Below are positions 25,411 to 56,112 of a DNA stretch of 64,000 nt, piece by piece. Positions within the stretch are counted from its first letter, which is position 1. Each line of letters starts with the position of its first letter. Origin of the DNA: a virus (Duplodnaviria; Caudoviricetes); the IMG/VR virus record IMGVR_UViG_3300025121_000014, positions 168,945-232,944 of that record. One strand, 5' to 3'. Made by a program: the position numbers and the translations under genes. A model generated the notes under the pieces. It was not told the DNA's origin, searched no databases, and saw only the letters and a list, made by a program, of their open reading frames with translations.

Positions 25411-26249
25411 ATATTTTTAATTTTTCCAAAATCTTTAATTTTTTCTATATATTCTAAAAATTCAATATTGTTCATTTTTTTAATAGATTCATATAATTTT
25501 TTATTTTCCTCTATTCTAGAATAATAATTATTTAAAACATCAAATTTATTTTTACCTGAAAAATGATATAAATGTAAACAATTATATTTATCATCATAAA
25601 AAATATTTAGTCCAAAATTTTTAATTTTTATATCTACAATATCATCTTCATGTGCATAACCATAACAATTTTCATCAAAGCCTTTAATTTTTAAATAATC
25701 ACTTTTTCTTATAAAAAATGAACCACCAGTCAAAACACCTAAATCTTTTCCCGAAGTAACTGTTTTCATAGATGATAATTTATTAAAATCTAATTCTTTT
25801 GTATAAAATAAATGACTATTTATGTAATTTAAATAACTTATACTAGAATATGGCTTTACTACATCAAATTCTTTACTATCAATTAATTCAATATATTCAT
25901 ATGCTTTTTTATGCACAACTATATCACCATCTTGAAATATTAAATTATCGTATTTACAATTATTAACTCCAATATTATAACCCCAACCTTTATTAAAAAC
26001 ACCATCATTCTTAACAAAAATGTGATTGATTTCTATATTTTTATTAAATTTTATATTATTTAACCAATCTATAGTAGATTTATTATCTTGTTCAACAATT
26101 ACAATTTCGGTATTATATTTTAAATTATCATTAATATATTCTAATATCTTAATAATATTGAATTTTCTATAATTTTGATAATTTTTATAATTTACATTTT
26201 TATTAAAATGTGATTCTTTATAAGAAATTATAATTGATACGTTGTTCAT
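25407..26249 (-). CDS. GT2/GT7-like glycosyltransferase
   Basis: IVEQD, FNKGWGYNIG, FQDGD, GFDENCYGYAHEDD. Confidence 0.8.
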   Translation of the reverse strand: MNNVSIIISYKESHFNKNVNYKNYQNYRKFNIIKILEYINDNLKYNTEIVIVEQDNKSTIDWLNNIKFNKNIEINHIFVKNDGVFNKGWGYNIGVNNCKYDNLIFQDGDIVVHKKAYEYIELIDSKEFDVVKPYSSISYLNYINSHLFYTKELDFNKLSSMKTVTSGKDLGVLTGGSFFIRKSDYLKIKGFDENCYGYAHEDDIVDIKIKNFGLNIFYDDKYNCLHLYHFSGKNKFDVLNNYYSRIEENKKLYESIKKMNNIEFLEYIEKIKDFGKIKNI

Positions 26250-26253
26250 ATAA

Positions 26254-26262
26254 TATATATTA
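26254..26262 (-). promoter_or_regulatory. TAATATATA motif (candidate phage promoter) heading the glycan cluster
   Basis: Exact motif 4 nt upstream of the 26249 ATG; GAACT lies 12 nt before the TATATA core. Confidence 0.5.
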
Positions 26263-26281
26263 CATAGAATCAGTTCTAAAC

Positions 26282-26309
26282 AAAAAAAAGGGATATTTAA
26301 TCTCCCTTT
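26282..26309 (-). terminator. Intrinsic terminator after the topoisomerase C-terminal half
   Basis: Minus strand GGGAGAT-TAA-ATATCCC stem (one mismatch) followed by 8 T. Confidence 0.65.
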
Positions 26310-28444
26310 CTAAACTTTCGAACTTCTTTTTTCAGTTCTAATAAATCTTTATGCCACATTTGTTCAATAGATATATCAGTAATTATTTTAATTTCTTTTT
26401 TTAATTCATCAAATTCCTCTTTTAATTTTACTAATTCTTCTTTTGATAATTTATATAAAGGAATTGATAATAAATAATTATATGAATCTTCTATTTTATC
26501 TAATTTATTTGTATCTAAAGATAATAAAATTTTATCCATAGGAATGTTATTTATTAAAATTGTACCATTCAATACTAACTTAATAAATTTCATTATATTA
26601 GATAAACGTTTATATTTTAAATCCAATTTATTAAGAATATATTCTTTTCTATCAGTATAATATACTATTCTATTATTATAAAAATCATCTATTATTTCAT
26701 ATTGATTTTCATATTTTTTAATTTTCCCTACAATATCAAATAAATGCATATTTGACATATTTAATTTAGAAGTTAATTCAAAAATATTATATAAATCTTC
26801 ATCCGTATATGATTGTAAAATTTCTCTTGATATTCTAATTTTAATATTAACTTTTGTATCAGTACAATATTTAATATACGATTTAATTATCTTATCATCA
26901 ATTAATTTATCTAATGTTAAATAATATTTATCATTCCAGACACCAATAGGTAATTCTGTTATATTTAAAGTCGTGGTATTAATTCTATTTATAATACCTT
27001 TAGTTATATAAACCTTATTATCTTTATCATAAATAATATCTCCTTTAAAACCTTCATAAAATGGATTTAAATCAATGTTCTTTTTTTTATTATTTAATTT
27101 ATTAATAATGTAATCAGTTAAATCTTCAATTTTAAAAGATGGTATAAAGGATGACCAACCAGTACCTACACCATAGCTACCATTTAATAATATATTTGGA
27201 ATAATTGGAATATAAAAAACTGGTTCTACTATTTTTCCATCATTTTCAGAATATTTTATAATATTATTATCAACTTGCATAAAAATTAGTTTGGTTATAT
27301 CTCTTAATTTAGTATGAATATAACGAGGTGCTGAACTATCTTTACCACCAGATAATCTTGTACCAAATCCACCAATAGGTTCAATTAAACTTATATTGTT
27401 AGAACCAACATAATCTTGAGCCATATTTATAATACCTTGATCTAATGAAGCAGATCCATGATGGTATTCCGCATTAGCTTTAACATGACCAAATAATTCA
27501 CCGACATTTAATTCACCTCTATTTCCTAATTTAAATAAAGTGAATAATATTTTTCTCTGTGAAGGTTTTAATCCATCCATAACTGAAGATATATTACGAA
27601 TATTATCTGCCATACTATATTCTATAAATTCATCATTCATAAAAGAATCATATGTAGTTTTACCAACAAATTTATCTACAATATTATTAGGATTATAATT
27701 TAATAACCATTCTTTTCTATCATCGGCTCTTTTATTTCTAAAAGCCAAATCAATTAAATCTTCTGTTTTTTCAGGATTTTCATAATTAAATTTAATAAGA
27801 TGTTTAGATATATTTTTAAAAAATACTTTACCAACTCCTCTTTCAATTGTACCAAGACCTTTATAATATTTTATATAATAACCTTTACCATTATCTGTAG
27901 TTTTTAACCAATGATTAAATTCTGATACTCTATAAAAGAATTTTTCAATTTTACCTTTTTTAGCTTTTGATATAGGTGTTACAAATTCATATAAAAAATC
28001 TATTTTTAATAATTCTGGCCAAAATGTATCAAATAAATTAATTAATAATCCTTTTATATGATAACCATCTAGATCTGCGTCACTCATTATGACAACTTTA
28101 CCATATCTTAAAGTTTTTATATTTTTATATTTTTTACCAAATTCTAAACCAAGAATTTGCATTAAATTTTTTATTTCATCATTTTCTTTTATCTTTTTTA
28201 AAGTAGTGTCTCTTACATTTAATGGTTTTCCTTTTAATGGAAATGCACCATAATAATCTCTACCAGTTTCAGAAAATCCAGCAATTGCAAGAGATTTAGC
28301 GGAATTGTGAGAAATTATACCATTTGATAATGTAAAACTTTCATCATCTACCGATATATCAACCATATTTACATATTCATCGTTATATTCAATAGAATCT
28401 ATTTCTACTAATTCCAAAAAATTATTTTCTATCATTATTTTCAA
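26297..28444 (-). CDS. top2: Type IIA topoisomerase C-terminal half (TOPRIM remainder plus breakage-reunion domain), led by a split-intein C fragment
   Basis: After ...IISHN: SAKSLA, PLKGK, DADLDGYHIKGL, YYKGLGT, DGLKPSQRK, YHHG, SAPRYIHT (catalytic Tyr). Confidence 0.93.
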   Translation of the reverse strand: MKIMIENNFLELVEIDSIEYNDEYVNMVDISVDDESFTLSNGIISHNSAKSLAIAGFSETGRDYYGAFPLKGKPLNVRDTTLKKIKENDEIKNLMQILGLEFGKKYKNIKTLRYGKVVIMSDADLDGYHIKGLLINLFDTFWPELLKIDFLYEFVTPISKAKKGKIEKFFYRVSEFNHWLKTTDNGKGYYIKYYKGLGTIERGVGKVFFKNISKHLIKFNYENPEKTEDLIDLAFRNKRADDRKEWLLNYNPNNIVDKFVGKTTYDSFMNDEFIEYSMADNIRNISSVMDGLKPSQRKILFTLFKLGNRGELNVGELFGHVKANAEYHHGSASLDQGIINMAQDYVGSNNISLIEPIGGFGTRLSGGKDSSAPRYIHTKLRDITKLIFMQVDNNIIKYSENDGKIVEPVFYIPIIPNILLNGSYGVGTGWSSFIPSFKIEDLTDYIINKLNNKKKNIDLNPFYEGFKGDIIYDKDNKVYITKGIINRINTTTLNITELPIGVWNDKYYLTLDKLIDDKIIKSYIKYCTDTKVNIKIRISREILQSYTDEDLYNIFELTSKLNMSNMHLFDIVGKIKKYENQYEIIDDFYNNRIVYYTDRKEYILNKLDLKYKRLSNIMKFIKLVLNGTILINNIPMDKILLSLDTNKLDKIEDSYNYLLSIPLYKLSKEELVKLKEEFDELKKEIKIITDISIEQMWHKDLLELKKEVRKFRKGD
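28304..28444 (-). other. Split intein C fragment (IntC, 47 aa)
   Basis: MVDISVDDESFTLSNGIISHN followed by Ser(+1): intein blocks F and G. Confidence 0.9.
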
Positions 28445-29705
28445 TTTTATTTTGTATAAATTTTATTATTTTATCTTTTTTATCTTTTTCAAAATCCCAT
28501 ATAACTAATACATCAAAATTATTATTTTTACATAAATTTAATTTATCGATATCTTTATTATAAACATCTTCTGCATTTAATTCTTTATTAAACGGATGTT
28601 CCCAATTATCCCATTCGTCTTTAGTGTAAATTTCTTTATTAGGATGCCAAATTTTACCATTATATTCAATAATAATTTTATAATCTAATAAAGTATAATC
28701 ATAAAAATATATTAAATCTTTATCATTATTTTTTAAAAAATATTCGTTTTTACCATACAAACCATTGATGTTTAAATATTTATCAACATCTTTAAATATT
28801 TTTATTGATTCATTTGAATAAAAATTACTATTTCGTATTTTACTTAGCCAATTATTTCTTCTGATAATACCATCTATTTCTCCATATAATTTAGTGAAAT
28901 TATCTACTGATAAATAATAACTTTTTTGTGATATATAATCGTTATACTTTTTATTACCATCTATACCATATCTAAATATAAAACTATTCAATGTTTGTTT
29001 ACATTTATTTGTTTTTATTCTGAATTCAAATAATGCTAATTCCTCATTTCCTTTATTTTTTTTTATAAAATGTTGTAATGACGAACTATCTTTCTTACTG
29101 CATATTTCATTAAATATTTTTGTTCCTTTTATTTCTCCATACTTTTCAATATAATAACTAATAGTATGTGAATATTTTAATTTATTTTTAAAATTGTTAA
29201 ACTTAGTTTTATCTCCATTAAAAAAATTCATATCTCTTGTTTGATATTTTTTATATATTTTTATATCTTTATGGTTTTCTTTATAAAATGGAGATTTATT
29301 CCTTTTATGAATAAATTCTAAAGCATCATCTTTAGATAAATTTAATGATTTGGATACAAATTCAACTGAGTTTGGATTTAGTTTTTTCCCATAACAATTT
29401 TTATTTTTACCCCTACAATAAAATTTACTGTAAATAATTTTAACATCTTTTATTAAACACCCATTTTTATATTTTTCTAATTCGTATTCTAATTCATAAT
29501 CTGAATATGAATCACAAAAACCACATTTTTTTATTTCTTTATTTAAATAATTAATTAAATAAAAATCTAATGTAAAATTAAATTTTTTAATAAGTGATAA
29601 TTTTAATGATTGTATAATTCTTTTTTTATTATAATTATTAGAATCTATAAATGATTTTATAGACATTCTAACATATTTATCGTTCATTATGTAATATACA
29701 TTCAT
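28422..29705 (-). CDS. Free-standing homing endonuclease (Vsr/PD-(D/E)XK-like) between the split-intein halves
   Basis: C-terminal FYDY.LLDYKIIIEYNGKIWH..DK..LC....FDVLVIWD; YIEKYG-type repeats; position inside the fractured gene. Confidence 0.8.
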   Translation of the reverse strand: MNVYYIMNDKYVRMSIKSFIDSNNYNKKRIIQSLKLSLIKKFNFTLDFYLINYLNKEIKKCGFCDSYSDYELEYELEKYKNGCLIKDVKIIYSKFYCRGKNKNCYGKKLNPNSVEFVSKSLNLSKDDALEFIHKRNKSPFYKENHKDIKIYKKYQTRDMNFFNGDKTKFNNFKNKLKYSHTISYYIEKYGEIKGTKIFNEICSKKDSSSLQHFIKKNKGNEELALFEFRIKTNKCKQTLNSFIFRYGIDGNKKYNDYISQKSYYLSVDNFTKLYGEIDGIIRRNNWLSKIRNSNFYSNESIKIFKDVDKYLNINGLYGKNEYFLKNNDKDLIYFYDYTLLDYKIIIEYNGKIWHPNKEIYTKDEWDNWEHPFNKELNAEDVYNKDIDKLNLCKNNNFDVLVIWDFEKDKKDKIIKFIQNKIENNDRK

Positions 29706-29710
29706 ACCGT

Positions 29711-29719
29711 TATATATTA
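29711..29719 (-). promoter_or_regulatory. TAATATATA motif upstream of the endonuclease
   Basis: Exact motif 5 nt upstream of the 29705 ATG. Confidence 0.5.
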
Positions 29720-29752
29720 ATTATTGAAAATGTGTTTTTGATGGAAGGTATA

Positions 29753-31552
29753 TTATATTTTATCATAATCAACTAAAAAATGTATATTTTTATCAATTTT
29801 ATCACATTCTAACATAATTATAGAATTATCATTAATATTAAAAACTGAAAATTTATGATTATTTGTAGATAGTATTTCATCACCATCGATATAAATAATT
29901 TTATTAAATTTATCATCTTTAATATTTTTTATATCATTAATTTTTACTAATCCATTAAAATTAATATTTTTATTTATTATCATTTTATGTATTTTTATAT
30001 CTATATCTTTTGTTCTTACAAAAAGAAAATCATTTTTAATTTTATCATAAATAAACCATTTATGATTTTCTGAACATATTAATATTTCACCGTTTTTTAA
30101 ATTTATGGTAACACTTTTTTCTATTTTTTTTGTAATATTTGTGATTAATTTAAAATTTGATTTATGTGTAATTACAACATCATCTAATTTAACATCTTTT
30201 ATTTTAATTTTTAATTTTTCACTATCTCTTAATATTGTAATTAATGTTTCTTCATATAAACAATCACCTTCAGTTAAAAATAAATGACATTTTTCAGATT
30301 CAACTGTTCCTGCTTTATTTGCATCAACTAATTTATCTACTTTAACTTTTTTAAATACATCTTTATTTAATTCTTTTTGTAATTGAATTTGATCTTTCAT
30401 CATAGATAATTTAATTAAATCATCTAACATATCAGACTTAGATATTCTTTTAATTATAGCATCATTTAATTGAACATCTTTTAATTGTCCATTTAATTTT
30501 GATGTTAAATTTTCTTTTGTTTGATTATCAAATACTGGATTTACTATTTTTGAATTAATAAATATTAAAAATCTATTTTTAATATCATTAGGTCTTATAT
30601 TAATACCCTTATTAGTTTTAGTTAATAAGTCTTTTACTGCATTAACTACATTACTAGTTACAAAATTAACATGTGTTCCACCAAAAATTGTTGATATACC
30701 ATTTACCATACTAACATGTGTAAATAAGTCAGATGGTGATTTAGCAACACCAATTTCCCAAAAATCATTTATTTTTTCATAAAATATTTCACCATTAGGT
30801 TCAATAAATAATTTCATATAATCTCTAAATGATCTTACTGGAATCATTACACCATTTAAAAATACTTTAACGGTAGGATTATAAGCCGCTATATCAATGA
30901 CACGTTTTACTAATAATGATTTTGTTTGTTCATCGATAGTAATCATATCAAATTTTTCAAAATCTGGTTTATATGTTATTTTAGTAAAACTTTTTTTAGA
31001 TTTTCTTGTGACTGGTTTAGTCATGGATGACATATTTTTAGAAAATTTTTGACGATATACTTTTTTACCATCAGCAGTTTCTACTTCAAACATAGTTGAA
31101 TAAATATTAGTGAGTTTTGCACCATAACCGTTACGTCCACCTACAAACCGTTCTTCATCATCTGAATAATTTTCACCTGTAAGTAAATGACCAAAAACCA
31201 TTTCTGGAATGTAAATTTTTTCTTTACCGTGAATTTCAACTGGAATCCCAGGTCCATCATTTTCAACAGAAATAATTTCTTCATCTATATTAATTTTAAT
31301 ATAAGATACTTGACCTGTTCTTATAGCATGGTCAGATGCATTAGTAATAATTTCATCAAATATTTTAATAAAACCTGGATTATAAGTTACTGTCTTATAT
31401 TCCATTTTAACTTCTTTTATATTATCATAATCAGTAGCAACAAAAATATTTTTAGTATCCATTTGTATACTCCCTATATAAGTTTCTGATCGTTTTAAAA
31501 TATGCTCTTTATGAGTTAATTTCACGTATCTATCTTCAACTTTTTTTACCAT
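29753..31552 (-). CDS. top2: Type IIA topoisomerase N-terminal half (GHKL ATPase plus TOPRIM start), ending in a split-intein N fragment
   Basis: EHILKR..TYIGS, FDEIITNA.D, ENDGPGIP, GGRNGYGAKLTNIYS, QTKE.L, LFLTEGD followed by C-L. Confidence 0.93.
   Translation of the reverse strand: MVKKVEDRYVKLTHKEHILKRSETYIGSIQMDTKNIFVATDYDNIKEVKMEYKTVTYNPGFIKIFDEIITNASDHAIRTGQVSYIKINIDEEIISVENDGPGIPVEIHGKEKIYIPEMVFGHLLTGENYSDDEERFVGGRNGYGAKLTNIYSTMFEVETADGKKVYRQKFSKNMSSMTKPVTRKSKKSFTKITYKPDFEKFDMITIDEQTKSLLVKRVIDIAAYNPTVKVFLNGVMIPVRSFRDYMKLFIEPNGEIFYEKINDFWEIGVAKSPSDLFTHVSMVNGISTIFGGTHVNFVTSNVVNAVKDLLTKTNKGINIRPNDIKNRFLIFINSKIVNPVFDNQTKENLTSKLNGQLKDVQLNDAIIKRISKSDMLDDLIKLSMMKDQIQLQKELNKDVFKKVKVDKLVDANKAGTVESEKCHLFLTEGDCLYEETLITILRDSEKLKIKIKDVKLDDVVITHKSNFKLITNITKKIEKSVTINLKNGEILICSENHKWFIYDKIKNDFLFVRTKDIDIKIHKMIINKNINFNGLVKINDIKNIKDDKFNKIIYIDGDEILSTNNHKFSVFNINDNSIIMLECDKIDKNIHFLVDYDKI
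29756..30262 (-). other. Split intein N fragment (IntN, 169 aa) with a duplicated block B
   Basis: Begins CLYEET directly after EGD; contains CSENHKW and STNNHKF 69 residues apart. Confidence 0.88.
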
Positions 31553-31716
31553 ATTTTAAAATTCTTGTATTTTTTATTTCATTTCAGTATATATAGTATT
31601 TTTCATAGTTTGTTTAACTAATCAAATGAACTATACATTAATTCTAATATTTTTCTATATCTACCATAATTACTTATTTTACATTATTATATTTAAAAAG
31701 TTTAATATTTCATATA

Positions 31717-31732
31717 TAATATATAATATATA
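31717..31732 (+). promoter_or_regulatory. Two overlapping TAATATATA motifs
   Basis: Copies at 31717-31725 and 31724-31732, just upstream of the 31738 ORF. Confidence 0.45.
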
Positions 31733-31737
31733 ATATT

Positions 31738-32079
31738 ATGAAAATAATTAACAATGATATGTTATATTTACAAAATTTTAAAAACTATATTATGAATGAA
31801 AATATAAATCAACATACTGATGACGAAAATTATATTACAAAAATTATTAAAAATATAGATAAAGATTTTAATATTGTTTTTACTGATAGACAAATAATAT
31901 TATCTATACAAAATCGATTTAATAGAGATAATCCTGTTTCATTTTCGAAAATGAAAAAATGTATGGAAAAATTTATAATAATCGAAAAAATATTAAAATA
32001 TAATAATTTAATAAATTCTGATCCAGATGCTATAGAATTAGATACCTATAGAATTAAAGCTAAATACACTTTTAATTAA
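31738..32079 (+). CDS. Hypothetical protein with a CTS-like N-terminus
   Basis: An alternative start at 31759 gives MLYLQNFKNYIMNE. Confidence 0.6.
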   Translation: MKIINNDMLYLQNFKNYIMNENINQHTDDENYITKIIKNIDKDFNIVFTDRQIILSIQNRFNRDNPVSFSKMKKCMEKFIIIEKILKYNNLINSDPDAIELDTYRIKAKYTFN

Positions 32080-32103
32080 ATTCCCTATTTTTAATAATTT
32101 ATA

Positions 32104-32132
32104 TTTTCCTAATTATAAATAAATTAGGAAAA
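32104..32132. other. Perfect 11-bp hairpin
   Basis: TTTTCCTAATT-ATAAATA-AATTAGGAAAA. Confidence 0.55.
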
Positions 32133-32172
32133 AGGAGCAAGATTATGATATATGTATTTTTATTTTTATTTT

Positions 32173-32219
<47 letters not shown>

Positions 32220-32308
32220 GATTTCAAAGTTTTTTTCAGACTTTATTTTAAATTTTAAATATATTATACTACTACACTAAAAAATAGGTATAAAATAAAA
32301 TATAATGT

Positions 32309-50740: not shown

Positions 50741-52177
50741 GTGTTAGTAAAAGAAAAAATTAACGTTAAAATTAAAAATAAAAGACAATTATATTCATTA
50801 AATAAAAATGGTATTAAAGGATTAGTTGGTGATGTAGTAGAAATGTTAATTAGTGAATTACCTATTGGATCTCATGAAATTATTCAAATAAAATGTGATA
50901 ATTGCGGTAAACTTAAAGATATGCAATTTAATAATTATTATAGATCAACAAACGGATTAACAGAAGAATATTATTGTAAAAATAAAGAATGTGTGAATAT
51001 AAAAAGAACATTAAATATTAGAAAAAAATATGGTGTAGATAATGTTTTTCAATTAAATGATGTAAAAGAAAAAATAAAAGAAACAAATTTAGAAAGATAT
51101 GGTGTCGAAAACCCTCAACAAAACAAAAAGATAAAAGAAAAAACAGAAGCAACAAATTTAGAAAGATATGGATTTAGAAATCAGTTTCAATGTAATTTAA
51201 TTAAAGAAAAAATAAAAGAAACAAACTTAGAAAGATATGGTGTTGAATATCCCCAACAAAGTAAAGAAATAAGATCAAAATATTCAACATTACACAAATC
51301 ATCTAAAGTAGAAAATGAATTATTATTATTTATTAAAAATAATTATGATAGTGAAATAGTATCAAATTCTAAAAAAATTATATTAGGGTATGAATTAGAT
51401 ATTTATATACCTGATTTAAAGTTAGCATTCGAATTTAATGGATTATATTGGCATAATGAATTAAGTAAAGATAAAAATTATCATCTTATAAAAACCGATT
51501 CTTGTGAAAAGCAAAATATCCAATTAATTCATATTTATGAAGATGATTGGGAATTTAAAAGGGATATAGTCAAATCAATGATTTTAAATAAGTTAGGTAA
51601 AACAATAAATAAAATATATGCAAGAAAAACTGAAATTAAAGAAATAACTGATAATAAATTAGTTAGGGGATTTTTAAATGAAAATCATATTCAAGGTTTT
51701 GTAGGATCATCAATTAAATTAGGATTGTTTTATGAAAATGAATTAGTTAGTTTAATGACTTTTGGTAAAAAACGTAAAATAATGAATGGGATTTCAAATA
51801 ATAGTGAATTAGAAATGTTACGTTTTTGTAATAAATTAAATACTAATGTTATAGGTGGTGCTTCAAAATTATTTAAATATTTTATAAGAAATTATAATTT
51901 TAAAGAAATAACTACATATGCAGATAGAAGTCAATCAAATGGAAAACTATATGAAATTTTAGGATTTAATTTTATACATAAAACAGAACCCAATTATTTT
52001 TATGTTGTTAATAGAAAAAGAGAATTTAGATTTAAATATAGAAAAGATGTTTTGATTAAAGAAGGTTATAATGCTAATAAATCAGAACATGAAATTATGT
52101 TAGAAAGAGGAATTTATAGAATTTATAATTCGGGAAATATAAAATATGTTCATACTTTAGATAATGTGTTTGACTAA
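50741..52177 (+). CDS. Hef-like homing endonuclease (23-aa repeats, PD-(D/E)XK nuclease, GNAT-like C-terminal domain)
   Basis: KETNLERYG repeats; ELDIYIPDLKLAFEFNGLYWH; C-terminal YARK..RFCNK..GGASKL..YADR. GTG start. Confidence 0.8.
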   Translation: MLVKEKINVKIKNKRQLYSLNKNGIKGLVGDVVEMLISELPIGSHEIIQIKCDNCGKLKDMQFNNYYRSTNGLTEEYYCKNKECVNIKRTLNIRKKYGVDNVFQLNDVKEKIKETNLERYGVENPQQNKKIKEKTEATNLERYGFRNQFQCNLIKEKIKETNLERYGVEYPQQSKEIRSKYSTLHKSSKVENELLLFIKNNYDSEIVSNSKKIILGYELDIYIPDLKLAFEFNGLYWHNELSKDKNYHLIKTDSCEKQNIQLIHIYEDDWEFKRDIVKSMILNKLGKTINKIYARKTEIKEITDNKLVRGFLNENHIQGFVGSSIKLGLFYENELVSLMTFGKKRKIMNGISNNSELEMLRFCNKLNTNVIGGASKLFKYFIRNYNFKEITTYADRSQSNGKLYEILGFNFIHKTEPNYFYVVNRKREFRFKYRKDVLIKEGYNANKSEHEIMLERGIYRIYNSGNIKYVHTLDNVFD

Positions 52178-54387: not shown

Positions 54388-56112
54388 TTATTGTTCAGGA
54401 ATTTTTAAGTATTTAAATTTTAAATTACCAGAATTATAAATTCTATAAATCTTTCTTTCTAACATAATTTGGTGTTCGGTTTTATTAGCATCGTATCCTT
54501 CTTTAATTAAAATATCTTTTCTAAAATTAAATCTATGATGTCTGATATTATCGATAACATAATAATAATTTGGTTTAGATGTATGTATATATTTGAATCC
54601 TAATATTTCATATAATTTACCATTCGAATGACTTTTATCTGCATATGTGATTATTTCTTCAAAATCGTAATTCTTAATAAAATATTTAAATAATTTTGAA
54701 GCACCTCCAATTATATTTGTATTTAATTTATTACAATATCTAAGCATTTCAAATTGTCCTTCACTCGAAGTCGAATTCATAGCTTTTCTCAATTTACCAA
54801 AAGTCATTAATGATACCAATTCATTTTGAAAGAATAATCCTATTTTTACTTTTGAACCAACAAATCCTTGAATATGATTTTTATTTAAAAATTCTCTGAC
54901 TAATTTATTATCAACTACTTCTTTTACTTCAGTTTTTCTTGCATAAATTTTATTTAATGATTTACCTAACTTATTTAAAATCATTGATTTGATTACATCT
55001 TGTTTATAAATCCAATCATCTTCATATATATGAATAAGATTAATTCCTATTTTTTCACATAAATCGGATTTATTTTTATGATAGTTATTCGGTTTATTCA
55101 ATTCGTTGTGCCAATAAACTCCATTAAATTCAAATGCTAACTTTAAATCAGGTAAATAAATATCTAATTCTTTACCGTTTAATATTTTTCTATCATTTGT
55201 AATAATTTCTTTATCGTAATTTTCTTTTATAAAATCATAAAAGAAAATTTCTTTACCAGATGTTGTTCCATTATTTGGATTACATATTAAGCATTGTTTA
55301 GTATTAATTGCTTTTCTATTTTGAAATATAGACATAGATGTTTTAAATGTATGATTTTTTTTACAGTCACAGATCATTTCTAATTGTTTATTGTTATAAT
55401 CGACTGATAATATATTTGGATATTTTTTAATTAAATTTAATGATTTTGTAGCAATAACTTTATTAATAATATTGATATTTTGCATTGGATTATTATAACC
55501 GTATTTTTCTAAATTTGTTTTTATAGTTTTTGGTTTATTATTAAATGTGCTATCATTATATTTTTCTAATTTAGTTTTTTTTATTTTATTTTTTATATTA
55601 TTATTTTTATTAGGGTGTTCTACACCATACTTTTCTAAATTTGTTTTTTTATATTTATTTTTAGTTTCTGTTAATTGCATGATATGTTTTACCCCATATC
55701 TTTTTAAATTTGTTTTTATCTTTTTATTTTCGAATTCGTTTATCATAGACGACCTAACTACACCATATTTTTCTAAATTAGTTTCGTTTGTTTTCTTTTT
55801 AATTTCAATATTTTTCATTGGATGATCAACACCATATTTTTCTAAATTTGTTTCTTTATTTTTAATATATGAACATTTTTTACAATAATATTTTTCTATT
55901 AATCCATTTGATAATTTATGATATGTTCTGAATTCCATACTTTTAATTAAACCACATATATCACATTTAGCATCTATTTTTAAATGACTTCCCTTATTTA
56001 TATCTTTACTTTTAACGCTAATATGATCTTTTAAATTAGCATCATATCCTTTATTCAAAAAATATTTATGATTATATTTATTTATTTGTAATGTTATATA
56101 ATCATCAATCAT
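54388..56112 (-). CDS. Hef-like homing endonuclease (paralog of 50741-52177)
   Basis: KETNLEKYG repeats; ELDIYLPDLKLAFEFNGVYWH; same C-terminal domain. Confidence 0.8.
   Translation of the reverse strand: MIDDYITLQINKYNHKYFLNKGYDANLKDHISVKSKDINKGSHLKIDAKCDICGLIKSMEFRTYHKLSNGLIEKYYCKKCSYIKNKETNLEKYGVDHPMKNIEIKKKTNETNLEKYGVVRSSMINEFENKKIKTNLKRYGVKHIMQLTETKNKYKKTNLEKYGVEHPNKNNNIKNKIKKTKLEKYNDSTFNNKPKTIKTNLEKYGYNNPMQNINIINKVIATKSLNLIKKYPNILSVDYNNKQLEMICDCKKNHTFKTSMSIFQNRKAINTKQCLICNPNNGTTSGKEIFFYDFIKENYDKEIITNDRKILNGKELDIYLPDLKLAFEFNGVYWHNELNKPNNYHKNKSDLCEKIGINLIHIYEDDWIYKQDVIKSMILNKLGKSLNKIYARKTEVKEVVDNKLVREFLNKNHIQGFVGSKVKIGLFFQNELVSLMTFGKLRKAMNSTSSEGQFEMLRYCNKLNTNIIGGASKLFKYFIKNYDFEEIITYADKSHSNGKLYEILGFKYIHTSKPNYYYVIDNIRHHRFNFRKDILIKEGYDANKTEHQIMLERKIYRIYNSGNLKFKYLKIPEQ

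Follow-up and report, generated by a model that had tools for sequence, protein, structure and literature searches.

The sequence comparisons and structure models presented here indicated that a groundwater jumbo phage of about 233 kb very probably carries a fractured gene, in which a single-chain type IIA topoisomerase of 1098 aa (T4 gp39 and gp52 fused) is encoded as two polypeptides that would be rejoined by a split intein. The window that we analyzed was a 64,000-nt stretch of this genome, and a T4-type topoisomerase and a baseplate gene identified the source as a phage rather than a giant virus. A preliminary description of the window had proposed a first half ending in a 169-aa IntN and a stop codon, a 427-aa nuclease gene, and a second half reading ISHN/SAKSLA (slashes mark extein-intein junctions or the insertion site). 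This anatomy was found, coordinates included, as three genes on the minus strand in the order Top2-N with IntN, Vsr-like endonuclease, and IntC with Top2-C:

29753-31552, minus strand: open reading frame of Top2-N plus IntN (599 aa, ...FLTEGD/CLYEET..., followed by a stop codon)
30263..31552, minus strand: Top2 N-extein, residues 1-430 (GHKL ATPase, transducer, and start of TOPRIM, ending ...FLTEGD)
29948..30262, minus strand: putative IntN core, about 105 aa (Cys1 in CLYEET, block B ICSENH, net charge +6)
29756..29947, minus strand: IntN tail, about 64 aa, predicted extra small beta-barrel domain (stop codon at 29753-29755)
29706..29752, minus strand: 47-nt spacer from the IntN stop codon to the endonuclease start codon, read directly from the sequence
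28422..29705, minus strand: free-standing putative homing-endonuclease gene, 427 aa (four-Cys finger at the N terminus, then helical repeats, and a Vsr-like nuclease at the C terminus)
nt 28425-28832, minus strand: predicted Vsr-like nuclease domain, residues ~292-427 of the endonuclease
26297-28444, minus strand: open reading frame of IntC plus Top2-C as read from TTG (contains ...NGIISHN/SAKSLA...)
28304..28435, minus strand: putative IntC, 44 aa (MIENNF...NGIISHN), blocks F and G, net charge -11
26297..28303, minus strand: Top2 C-extein, 668 aa plus stop codon, beginning SAKSLAIAGF

IntN and IntC were located in distinct open reading frames, each with its own stop and start codons. One boundary had to be moved: IntC had been assigned 47 aa, and we shortened it to 44 aa because 20 of 20 homologous C-halves start at a Met that matches ATG 28435 (MIENN...), which makes this ATG, and not TTG 28444, the probable start codon. 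The ATG overlaps the endonuclease gene and sits in its final 14 nt. In the spacer, TTAATATATAA was located 5 nt upstream of the endonuclease ATG; this motif was not enriched across the window (5 matches versus 3.6 expected). No RNA family was found at the locus and, therefore, no group I intron. The locus was absent from all RNA runs.

The type IIA domain order (GHKL ATPase, transducer, TOPRIM, and breakage-reunion) was present over the two exteins in Pfam and PHROG comparisons. Specifically, HATPase_c and DNA_gyraseB were identified in the first open reading frame, and Toprim, TOPRIM_C, and DNA_topoisoIV (E 5e-100) were identified in the third. The N-extein matched phrog_543 (T4-type topoisomerase II large subunit; E 6e-101), and the C-extein, which contained the remainder of TOPRIM with an intact DADLDG, TOPRIM_C, and a breakage-reunion domain with ...SAPRYI..., matched phrog_551 and phrog_543. 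The motifs EGD/SA, DADLDG, and ...PRYI... were readable in the extein sequences.

The exteins were colinear with uninterrupted alleles, which are 1097-1099 aa long and read FLTEGDSAKSLAIAGF at the site. In the case of uninterrupted allele P0169, the N-extein covered residues 4-432 and stopped exactly at the D of EGD, the C-extein covered residues 432-1098, and no residue was lost or doubled at FLTEGD/SAKSLAIAGF. The calculation that 430 and 668 residues give a 1098-aa enzyme was thus confirmed, as was the idea that joining the exteins restores EGDSA. One of the uninterrupted alleles had a gene neighborhood resembling that of a fractured locus (L003).

The sequences that flank the break carried the proposed hallmarks of a split intein. 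The putative class 1 N-terminal nucleophile, Cys1, directly follows the N-extein (...TEGD/CLYEET) and was invariant in 24 aligned alleles. Block B, which has the form (T/S)xxH, reads ICSENH, is in register with CSEEH of gp41-1, and had invariant Cys, Ser, and His residues; C1, S64, and H67 were invariant in alignments of 22-24 IntN alleles. Blocks F and G read ...NMVDISV...F.L.NGIISHN, followed by Ser+1, and IntC residues D26, F34, G39, S42, H43, N44, and the following S45 (Ser+1) were invariant in 21 alleles. As for the fold, the best PDB sequence match of the IntN core was the gp41-1 intein (E 0.002), and the model of the core had a HINT fold, with matches to Npu DnaE-N (Z 8.7, rmsd 3.1, 93 aa), gp41-1 (Z 8.1), Hedgehog Hint (Z 8.1), and NrdJ-1 (Z 7.9). 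Mean net charges were +6.5 for the IntN core and -9.8 for IntC. The predicted IntN-IntC complex had an ipSAE of 0.70, compared to 0.00 for the best control, although the model may reflect memory of solved split inteins; of 80 solved complexes, 58 attained a value of 0.70, as did 2 of 110 mismatched pairs. The predicted IntC interface involved the IntN core only and not the tail. Based on motifs and models, the locus most likely encodes a naturally split class 1 intein.

We propose that the two halves of the topoisomerase, broken within the invariant TOPRIM motif EGD/SA, are translated separately, such that the N polypeptide ends with the 169-aa IntN and the C polypeptide opens with the 44-aa IntC. 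The IntN core, which is basic, and the acidic IntC would pair posttranslationally to form a class 1 HINT domain, and Cys1, the His of block B, the His-Asn that ends IntC, and Ser+1 would carry out trans-splicing, ligating ...FLTEGD to SAKSLA.... The spliced enzyme would have a layout identical to that of intein-less alleles.

The alternative that survived best was that the intein halves no longer splice and instead serve as a tight noncovalent dimerization module for the topoisomerase halves, as the tails do in HEG-split Aeh1 NrdA or T4 gp39/gp60. Noncovalent rescue is documented for HEG-split phage genes, including the T4 topoisomerase that is split by mobA (PMC3045599). Furthermore, intein position 1 is Thr rather than Cys in five of the relatives' cluster representatives, which may splice poorly, and the extra IntN domain could aid assembly. 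However, the residues that are needed only for the chemistry (Cys1, the block-B His, the terminal Asn, and Ser+1) were invariant in the window and in 22-24 close alleles, and an unspliced 213-residue insert inside the TOPRIM active-site motif would probably be disruptive. We considered the loss of splicing to be quite improbable.

The locus was not a one-off; the element is ancient and widespread. We found 25 further Top2-N plus IntN proteins and 20 further IntC plus Top2-C proteins. The three-gene layout also occurred in four independent assemblies from other samples (L002-L005), with endonuclease identities of 47-65%, and in most of 19 IMG/VR contigs (L008-L026). Among 190 cluster representatives (50% identity), 80 ended in an IntN with a tail, and the protein cluster count for the layout was at least 80 at that identity. 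Some relatives lacked the endonuclease or had a decayed one, some were also fractured at two additional sites (up to three fracture sites per gene), and two phage-metagenome alleles (P0147 and P0230) had a contiguous mini-intein at the identical site. No IntN relatives were found among 185,579 species genomes.

These relatives and the reads bore on whether the gene breaks are real. In principle, frameshift errors or a chimeric join could have broken up a contiguous intein that contains an endonuclease domain, since the window comes from a metagenome assembly and depth in the runs was low. However, stop and start codons occurred at homologous places in the independent assemblies and IMG/VR contigs, which were 35-72% identical, and the endonuclease has a start codon of its own after the 47-nt spacer. 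The Vsr-like family is also known from free-standing genes rather than from intein domains (PMC2677866, PMC3239194). Finally, the read check proposed for the two junctions was run, and Logan unitigs spanned both with no differing letters. The bridging unitigs covered 28239-29183 and 29162-30305 in run X1, which is possibly the source sample, and 28177-28608 and 29593-31391 in run X4, which is from a different study but shares its sample with a possible source run. The gene breaks were thus real, and an artefact was extremely improbable.

We also compared selection on the parts of the locus, using two closer relatives; dN/dS values are rough because dS was near saturation. They were 0.16-0.18 for the IntN core, 0.07-0.13 for IntC, and 0.21-0.41 for the exteins; an IntC range of 0.07-0.15 was also recorded. 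In amino acid identity, the IntN core (78%) exceeded the N-extein (66%), and IntC (86%) exceeded the C-extein (63%). The intein was thus conserved more strongly than the enzyme, and purifying selection on it is stronger because loss of the split intein would kill an essential gene. A decaying pseudogene, in which the endonuclease insertion inactivated the topoisomerase and the pieces are drifting, has nothing specific in its favor beyond the tolerance of jumbo phages for many selfish insertions, and it is hardly credible given the purifying selection on all parts (dN/dS 0.07-0.41), the better conservation of the intein parts, both frames being open in the at least 80 diverged clusters, and no second topoisomerase II copy being seen in the window.

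The gene between the halves had been described as Vsr-like, and the structural comparisons agreed. The AF2 model (pLDDT 92.4) placed residues 292-427 close to the DUF559 protein 3hrl (Z 9.4), Vsr 1cw0 (Z 9.4), and I-Bth0305I 3r3p (Z 8.6, 96 of 98 residues aligned, 24% identity). Sequence similarity was weak: the family profile had 3r3p as its best PDB match at a marginal E of 0.017, the single sequence had no match to solved EDxHD/Vsr nucleases, and the window protein had no match in Pfam, with 4 of 45 relatives matching DUF559. Residues E321, D336, E347, H354, and K388 were conserved. The EDxHD composite motif, as defined previously (PMC3239194), corresponds to E321, D336, N349, H354, and D385 in the window protein, and over 45 family members the E, D, H, and last D were present in 44, 44, 43, and 30, respectively. 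The gene had 132 homologues and, at a dN/dS of 0.33, appeared to be under purifying selection. Taken together, the fold, the selection, and the motif residues supported its identification as a Vsr-like homing endonuclease of the EDxHD type.

The best PDB match of the family profile, I-Bth0305I (PMC3239194; PDB 3R3P), shares the C-terminal nuclease fold, a presumed N-terminal DNA-binding region, and similar spacing of E, D, N, H, and D. The local motif is IIEYNGKIWH here and IEVNGVYWH in 3R3P, and the H is Ala in the crystallized mutant. In contrast to I-Bth0305I, the window protein is longer (427 aa versus ~266 aa), its N-terminal region combines a four-Cys finger with several helical YGxxxG repeats, and an insert of ~24 residues separates the His from the last Asp; NUMOD-2 motifs were not demonstrated in that N-terminal region. 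The ancestral endonuclease presumably cleaved intein-less alleles at or near the EGD/SA codons, which would have spread the element. The element is now old and inherited mostly vertically, with a dispensable endonuclease that is lost or decaying in some relatives.

The locus adds to the class of fractured genes described by Dassa in 2009 (PMC2677866), which comprises gp41-1 to -8, NrdJ-1, IMPDH-1, NrdA, DnaE, ligase, and TerL; in this class, the halves flank a free-standing endonuclease gene of the Vsr-like or GIY-YIG type. That paper names eight host enzymes; topoisomerase is not among them, and our host enzyme is new to its list. Our literature searches found no report of a fractured topoisomerase with a split intein, in agreement with the preliminary description, which gave the layout as described for phage gp41, NrdJ, IMPDH, and similar genes and as not known to occur in a type II topoisomerase. 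As in the Dassa class, the three parts lie on one strand, the origin is phage or metagenomic, the host is a DNA-metabolism enzyme, the break falls between motifs N4 and C2, where endonucleases are canonically inserted, the halves are charge complementary, and gp41-1 is the closest solved intein by sequence. The differences are the type IIA topoisomerase host, the TOPRIM EGD/SA insertion site, and a charge polarity of basic IntN and acidic IntC. In addition, an extra tail domain derived from a repeat brings IntN to 169 aa, compared to 88-105 aa in the class, a descriptive range and not a strict criterion, and the 44-aa IntC falls in the corresponding range of 33-54 aa (PMC2677866).

Two other systems were relevant. 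In T4, the topoisomerase II large subunit is encoded by genes 39 and 60, which are separated by the mobA endonuclease gene (PMC3045599). The enzyme family, a break in or near TOPRIM, a free-standing homing-endonuclease gene, and posttranslational rescue are common to both loci, but T4 has no intein and assembles noncovalently, whereas covalent ligation by intein halves is expected here. The break points also differ, as the T4 break probably lies closer to the DxD site, which serves as fracture site b in relatives of this phage. Contiguous inteins are known in cellular GyrB and virus topoisomerase II genes (PMC4760082, PMC5784728). Those inteins also lie within the GyrB/Top2 ATPase-TOPRIM module, but they are single chain and ours is split. 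In Synechocystis GyrB, the intein is probably followed by SA.

The naturally fractured genes and sites known so far, which are few, thus gain an essential, well-studied type IIA topoisomerase and its TOPRIM active-site motif. The fractured-gene class is the source of the widely used split inteins gp41-1, NrdJ-1, and IMPDH-1. The family described here offers dozens of diverged Ser+1 pairs, a 44-aa IntC of unusual acidity, and variants that either have or lack the extra domain, and its members are candidate orthogonal ligation tools for protein engineering. One gene also provides a homing-cycle series (empty site, contiguous mini-intein, split intein with endonuclease, split intein with decayed endonuclease, and split intein alone), and this series, together with up to three fracture sites per gene, can test the gene-breaking model. 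Such genes are likely to be annotated as two unrelated partial topoisomerases and a hypothetical protein.

The IntN tail was modeled as a separate domain (pLDDT 86-95) whose best fold match, AXH, was weak (Z 5.4). It repeats core residues 53-93, with STNNH as a second TxxH-like motif, and an hhalign comparison of core and tail gave a probability of 91.8% and an E of 7e-7. By these alignments, the tail is a conserved internal repeat, about 65 aa long, of the block-B segment of IntN itself; its invariant residues were S, H, F, S, M, C, H, and Y. One possible, if on balance doubtful, explanation is that duplication of the block-B hairpin gave rise to an accessory module that controls trans-splicing. 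The tail might be a cage or an intramolecular chaperone, holding the 599-aa N precursor in a soluble or inactive state until IntC is available, or it might link splicing to the assembly of topoisomerase dimers. If the tail does control splicing, then this would be a natural regulated split intein rather than a plain one. The contiguous allele P0147 and two short split alleles, P0240 and P0243, lacked the tail. Two loci without the endonuclease (L017 and L019) still keep it, and therefore a role in the intein or enzyme is likelier than one as an endonuclease cofactor.

Three ORFs lay in succession on the minus strand between positions 26297 and 31552. The outer two encoded the N- and C-terminal parts of a type II topoisomerase (Top2-N and Top2-C), each fused to an intein fragment (IntN and IntC), as follows:

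29753-31552, minus strand: Top2-N+IntN ORF, 599 aa, with HATPase_c and DNA_gyraseB domains
28422-29705, minus strand: endonuclease ORF, 427 aa, with no Pfam match
26297-28444, minus strand: IntC+Top2-C ORF, 715 aa with a TTG start or 712 aa with the ATG start at 28435

The third ORF contained Toprim, TOPRIM_C, and DNA_topoisoIV domains (E 5e-100) and had a faint Intein_splicing match at its N-terminus. In the first ORF, the extein ended with ...KCHLFLTEGD and was followed directly by CLYEETLITIL..., with the stop 169 residues past the Cys; in the third, MIENNFLELVEIDSIEYNDEYVNMVDISVDDESFTLSNGIISHN preceded SAKSLAIAGF.... A 47-nt spacer separated the Top2-N+IntN stop from the ATG of the endonuclease gene, and the final 14 nt of the endonuclease gene overlapped the ATG of the IntC+Top2-C gene. 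Thus, the ORFs, domains, and junctions agreed with the three-ORF layout with intein halves that was proposed in the preliminary description. The length of 47 aa given there for IntC was corrected to 44 aa because all 20 homologous C-halves began at the Met equivalent to position 28435. A local HMM scan of the window found IntN, IntC, and the endonuclease gene only once each. A scan for promoters and terminators was uninformative in this AT-rich DNA, and the TTAATATATAA box ahead of the endonuclease start showed no enrichment.

The two halves of the topoisomerase fit together precisely. Uninterrupted alleles (P0168 to P0170) were 1097 to 1099 aa long and read ...KCHLFLTEGDSAKSLAIAGFS... at the corresponding position. 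Aligned with P0169, the N-half of the window protein covered residues 4 to 432 and ended exactly at the D of EGD, and the C-half ran from residue 432/433 through to the end. Joining residue 430 to Ser45 would thus produce an enzyme of 1098 aa and about 126 kDa in which no residue is missing or repeated and which contains the junction peptide ...FLTEGDSAKSLAIAGF....

Recurrence and read data both indicated that the locus was almost certainly a real fractured gene. The closest relatives of the endonuclease (47-65% identity) were found in independent assemblies of other samples, and each lay between a Top2-N of about 600 aa with the same intein fragment at its end and a Top2-C with the same IntC at its start. 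Searches with IntN alone retrieved 25 further Top2-N+IntN proteins (47-72% identity across all 169 residues), and searches with IntC retrieved 20 further IntC+Top2-C proteins. When 1.84 billion cluster representatives were searched with a profile, 190 matched, and at least 80 of these had a full-length IntN at the extreme end of the protein. In IMG/VR, the element was present on 19 viral contigs, the longest of 292 kb, and no IntN relatives were found in GTDB genomes. The preliminary description had allowed for an assembly error at the junctions; in the reads, both gene junctions were bridged, with no differing letters, by Logan unitigs of two groundwater runs (X1 and X4). X1 is a possible source sample and X4, from another study, is of a sample common to a possible source run, so these runs are supporting rather than fully independent. 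Many apparent joints in the read layout were disregarded, as they were 20- to 25-nt matches in low-complexity AT-rich DNA. A group I intron was rejected because no Rfam family was detectable in 26000-32000 (E up to 1).

The class 1 splicing residues (Cys1, block B [ICSxxH], the block F Asp, the terminal His-Asn, and Ser+1) were all present and were invariant across alleles. By sequence, the closest solved intein was gp41-1, which was in register through block B (E 0.002). In the AlphaFold model of IntN (pLDDT 79.7), residues -2 to about 102 superposed on the N-parts of Npu DnaE-N (Z 8.7), gp41-1 (Z 8.1), and NrdJ-1 (Z 7.9). Inteins ranked first in a Foldseek search with this model, none at an E value of 0.001 or better, and a PDB search with the single IntC sequence returned only noise. 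The mean charge of the IntN core (its first ~105 aa) was basic (+6.5) and that of IntC was strongly acidic (-9.8), a complementarity of the kind described for natural split inteins. A model of the IntN-IntC complex scored 0.70 versus 0.00 for the best of three controls; among solved complexes, 58 of 80 attained the score mark, as did 2 of 110 mismatched pairs. The score could in part stem from the model having memorized solved split inteins. The predicted interface was restricted to the IntN core.

Compared with the fractured relatives L003 and L002, identity was 78% for the IntN core and 86% for IntC versus 66% and 63% for the exteins. Likewise, against the two closer relatives, dN/dS was 0.21-0.41 in the exteins and lower in the IntN core (0.16-0.18) and IntC (0.07-0.13), values that are rough because dS was near saturation. 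Better conservation of the intein than of its host enzyme would be expected if an essential enzyme depended on splicing. From these data we infer that the Top2 halves are spliced, and the locus very probably trans-splices as the preliminary description proposed. The locus represents a genuine, conserved, naturally split intein in a phage type IIA topoisomerase, with a Vsr-like endonuclease encoded as a free-standing gene.

The unexpected feature of the locus was a repeat-derived extra domain at the C-terminal end of IntN. IntN was 169-177 aa in all close alleles; the range given by Dassa 2009 is 88-105 aa. The last ~65 residues, here called the tail and spanning residues 536-599 of the Top2-N+IntN protein, were missing from a contiguous mini-intein at the same site (P0147) and from some split alleles of more distantly related gp39-type subunits (P0240 and P0243), and for this reason the tail is an addition that the intein does not require. 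It arose as a repeat, within IntN, of the block B hairpin (residues 53-93). A profile-profile comparison of core and tail gave a probability of 91.8% (E 7e-7), and repeat z-scores for single sequences were 3-8 in seven of the eight alleles tested (0.9 in the eighth, P0143). Eight residues of the tail were invariant, it had a (T/S)xxH-like motif of its own, and it was the most confidently modeled part of IntN (pLDDT 86-95). In the model of IntN alone, it folded into a small, separate beta-barrel, for which the best fold match, AXH, was weak (Z 5.4). The idea that the tail substitutes for IntC was rejected, given this separate barrel and the absence of the tail from the residues confidently touching IntC, which lay on the core. 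Language-model look-alikes of the tail were phage HINT/intein clusters, all under the 0.9 trust mark. Among the matches, protein-terminal IntNs with a tail occurred only at topoisomerase junctions or on fragments without a readable junction, and the tail was kept in loci that had no endonuclease gene.

The family of the endonuclease comprised at least 132 metagenomic proteins, a few of which were annotated as very-short-patch-repair endonucleases or matched DUF559. A PDB search with the single sequence gave only noise, and the best match of a 45-member profile was I-Bth0305I (3R3P), with an E value of only 0.017. In the AlphaFold model (pLDDT 92.4), residues 292-427 matched the DUF559 endonuclease-like protein 3hrl (Z 9.4, rmsd 2.3), Vsr (1cw0; Z 9.4), and I-Bth0305I (Z 8.6, 96 of 98 residues, 24% identity). 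The residues of the EDxHD motif, as defined for the I-Bth0305I family (PMC3239194), were E321, D336, N349, H354, and D385; the first four were nearly invariant in the family, and the final Asp was present in 30 of 45 members. The N-terminal part had four conserved Cys residues (61, 64, 97, and 104) and a run of helices. Because the gene was under purifying selection (dN/dS about 0.33) and had diverged about as much as the exteins, its sequence suggests long co-inheritance rather than recent invasion.

The endonuclease was full length in most of the 19 IMG/VR loci, was cut down to a C-terminal stub of 71 or 93 aa in L013 and L018, and was missing from between the intein halves in L017, L019, and L020. 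IntN, with its tail, and IntC persisted in all five of these loci. Together with the other alleles, the family included an empty site, a contiguous mini-intein, a split intein with an endonuclease, a split intein with a decayed endonuclease, and a split intein alone. Thus, all of the stages expected by the gene-breaking/homing-cycle model occur in one gene family. The gene neighborhood of the intact allele L006 resembled that of fractured L003. In an N-extein tree, four intact alleles formed one clade nested within fractured ones; the sampling of intact alleles was biased by the queries, so the tree shows only that close relatives include both states. At the insertion point, the Asp-Ser codons were GAC-AGT in L006 (4280-4310) and GAT...TCN in all four fractured loci examined; the matching window positions were 30263 and 28303. 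The L006 codons, seen in one lineage only, could mark a cleavage-resistant empty site.

The topoisomerase gene is a hot spot for fractures in relatives. Some carried a fracture at the TOPRIM DxD motif, either as an additional break or as the only one (VIMSDAD/CLCEDT...; L005:4160-5340 and P0171), and another Zn-finger endonuclease-like ORF followed. Others were fractured in the breakage-reunion domain, at YHHG(E/A)/CLDYDTE (P0149, P0152, and P0154). Together with the EGD/SA site, these fractures mean that a single gene can be broken into three or more pieces; the window topoisomerase was unbroken at the other two sites. In five proteins (P0189, P0200, P0210, P0214, and P0219), Thr replaced Cys at intein position 1 (FITEGD/TIHE...) and block B was SPEHR, which would make this subfamily either a rare Thr1 intein or a nonsplicing derivative.

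The window locus shared its layout with the fractured genes listed by Dassa et al. 2009, which were gp41, IMPDH, DnaE, NrdA, NrdJ, ligase, terminase, and one unknown protein, with no topoisomerase among them. Contiguous inteins are known in GyrB, GyrA, and viral topoisomerases, and in T4 the mobA endonuclease gene is known to divide the gene for the large topoisomerase subunit, with no intein involved (PMC3045599). A search of full-text literature for split inteins in topoisomerases returned nothing relevant; a prior description is possible because subscription journals were outside its scope. The class of fractured genes is known, and a type IIA topoisomerase as host is a new member of it.

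The host is a jumbo phage, and its topoisomerase II is a single fused chain. The Top2 halves matched T4-type PHROGs, namely that of the large subunit (phrog_543, E 6e-101) and that of gp52 (phrog_551, E 2e-109). The Top2-N+IntN protein was recorded on a sequence of 232,944 bp, and the runs containing it were groundwater metagenomes. A giant-virus origin, guessed from the 21% GC of the window, was rejected in light of the T4-type PHROGs, a baseplate wedge protein encoded in the window, and the relatives on IMG/VR phage contigs.

Elsewhere in the window, two paralogous ORFs of 478 aa (50741-52177, plus strand) and 574 aa (54388-56112, minus strand) matched phrog_3339 (homing endonuclease) and phrog_559 (HNH endonuclease), with E values of about 1e-122; a 712-aa ORF without a PHROG match lay between them. 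Genes diverged from about 31600-32300: the topoisomerase was encoded on the minus strand, and the genes that came next were on the plus strand. GC skew changed sign at about 32 kb, and the intergenic stretch there contained a long A/T-rich (AAG/AAA)n run at 32099-32280.
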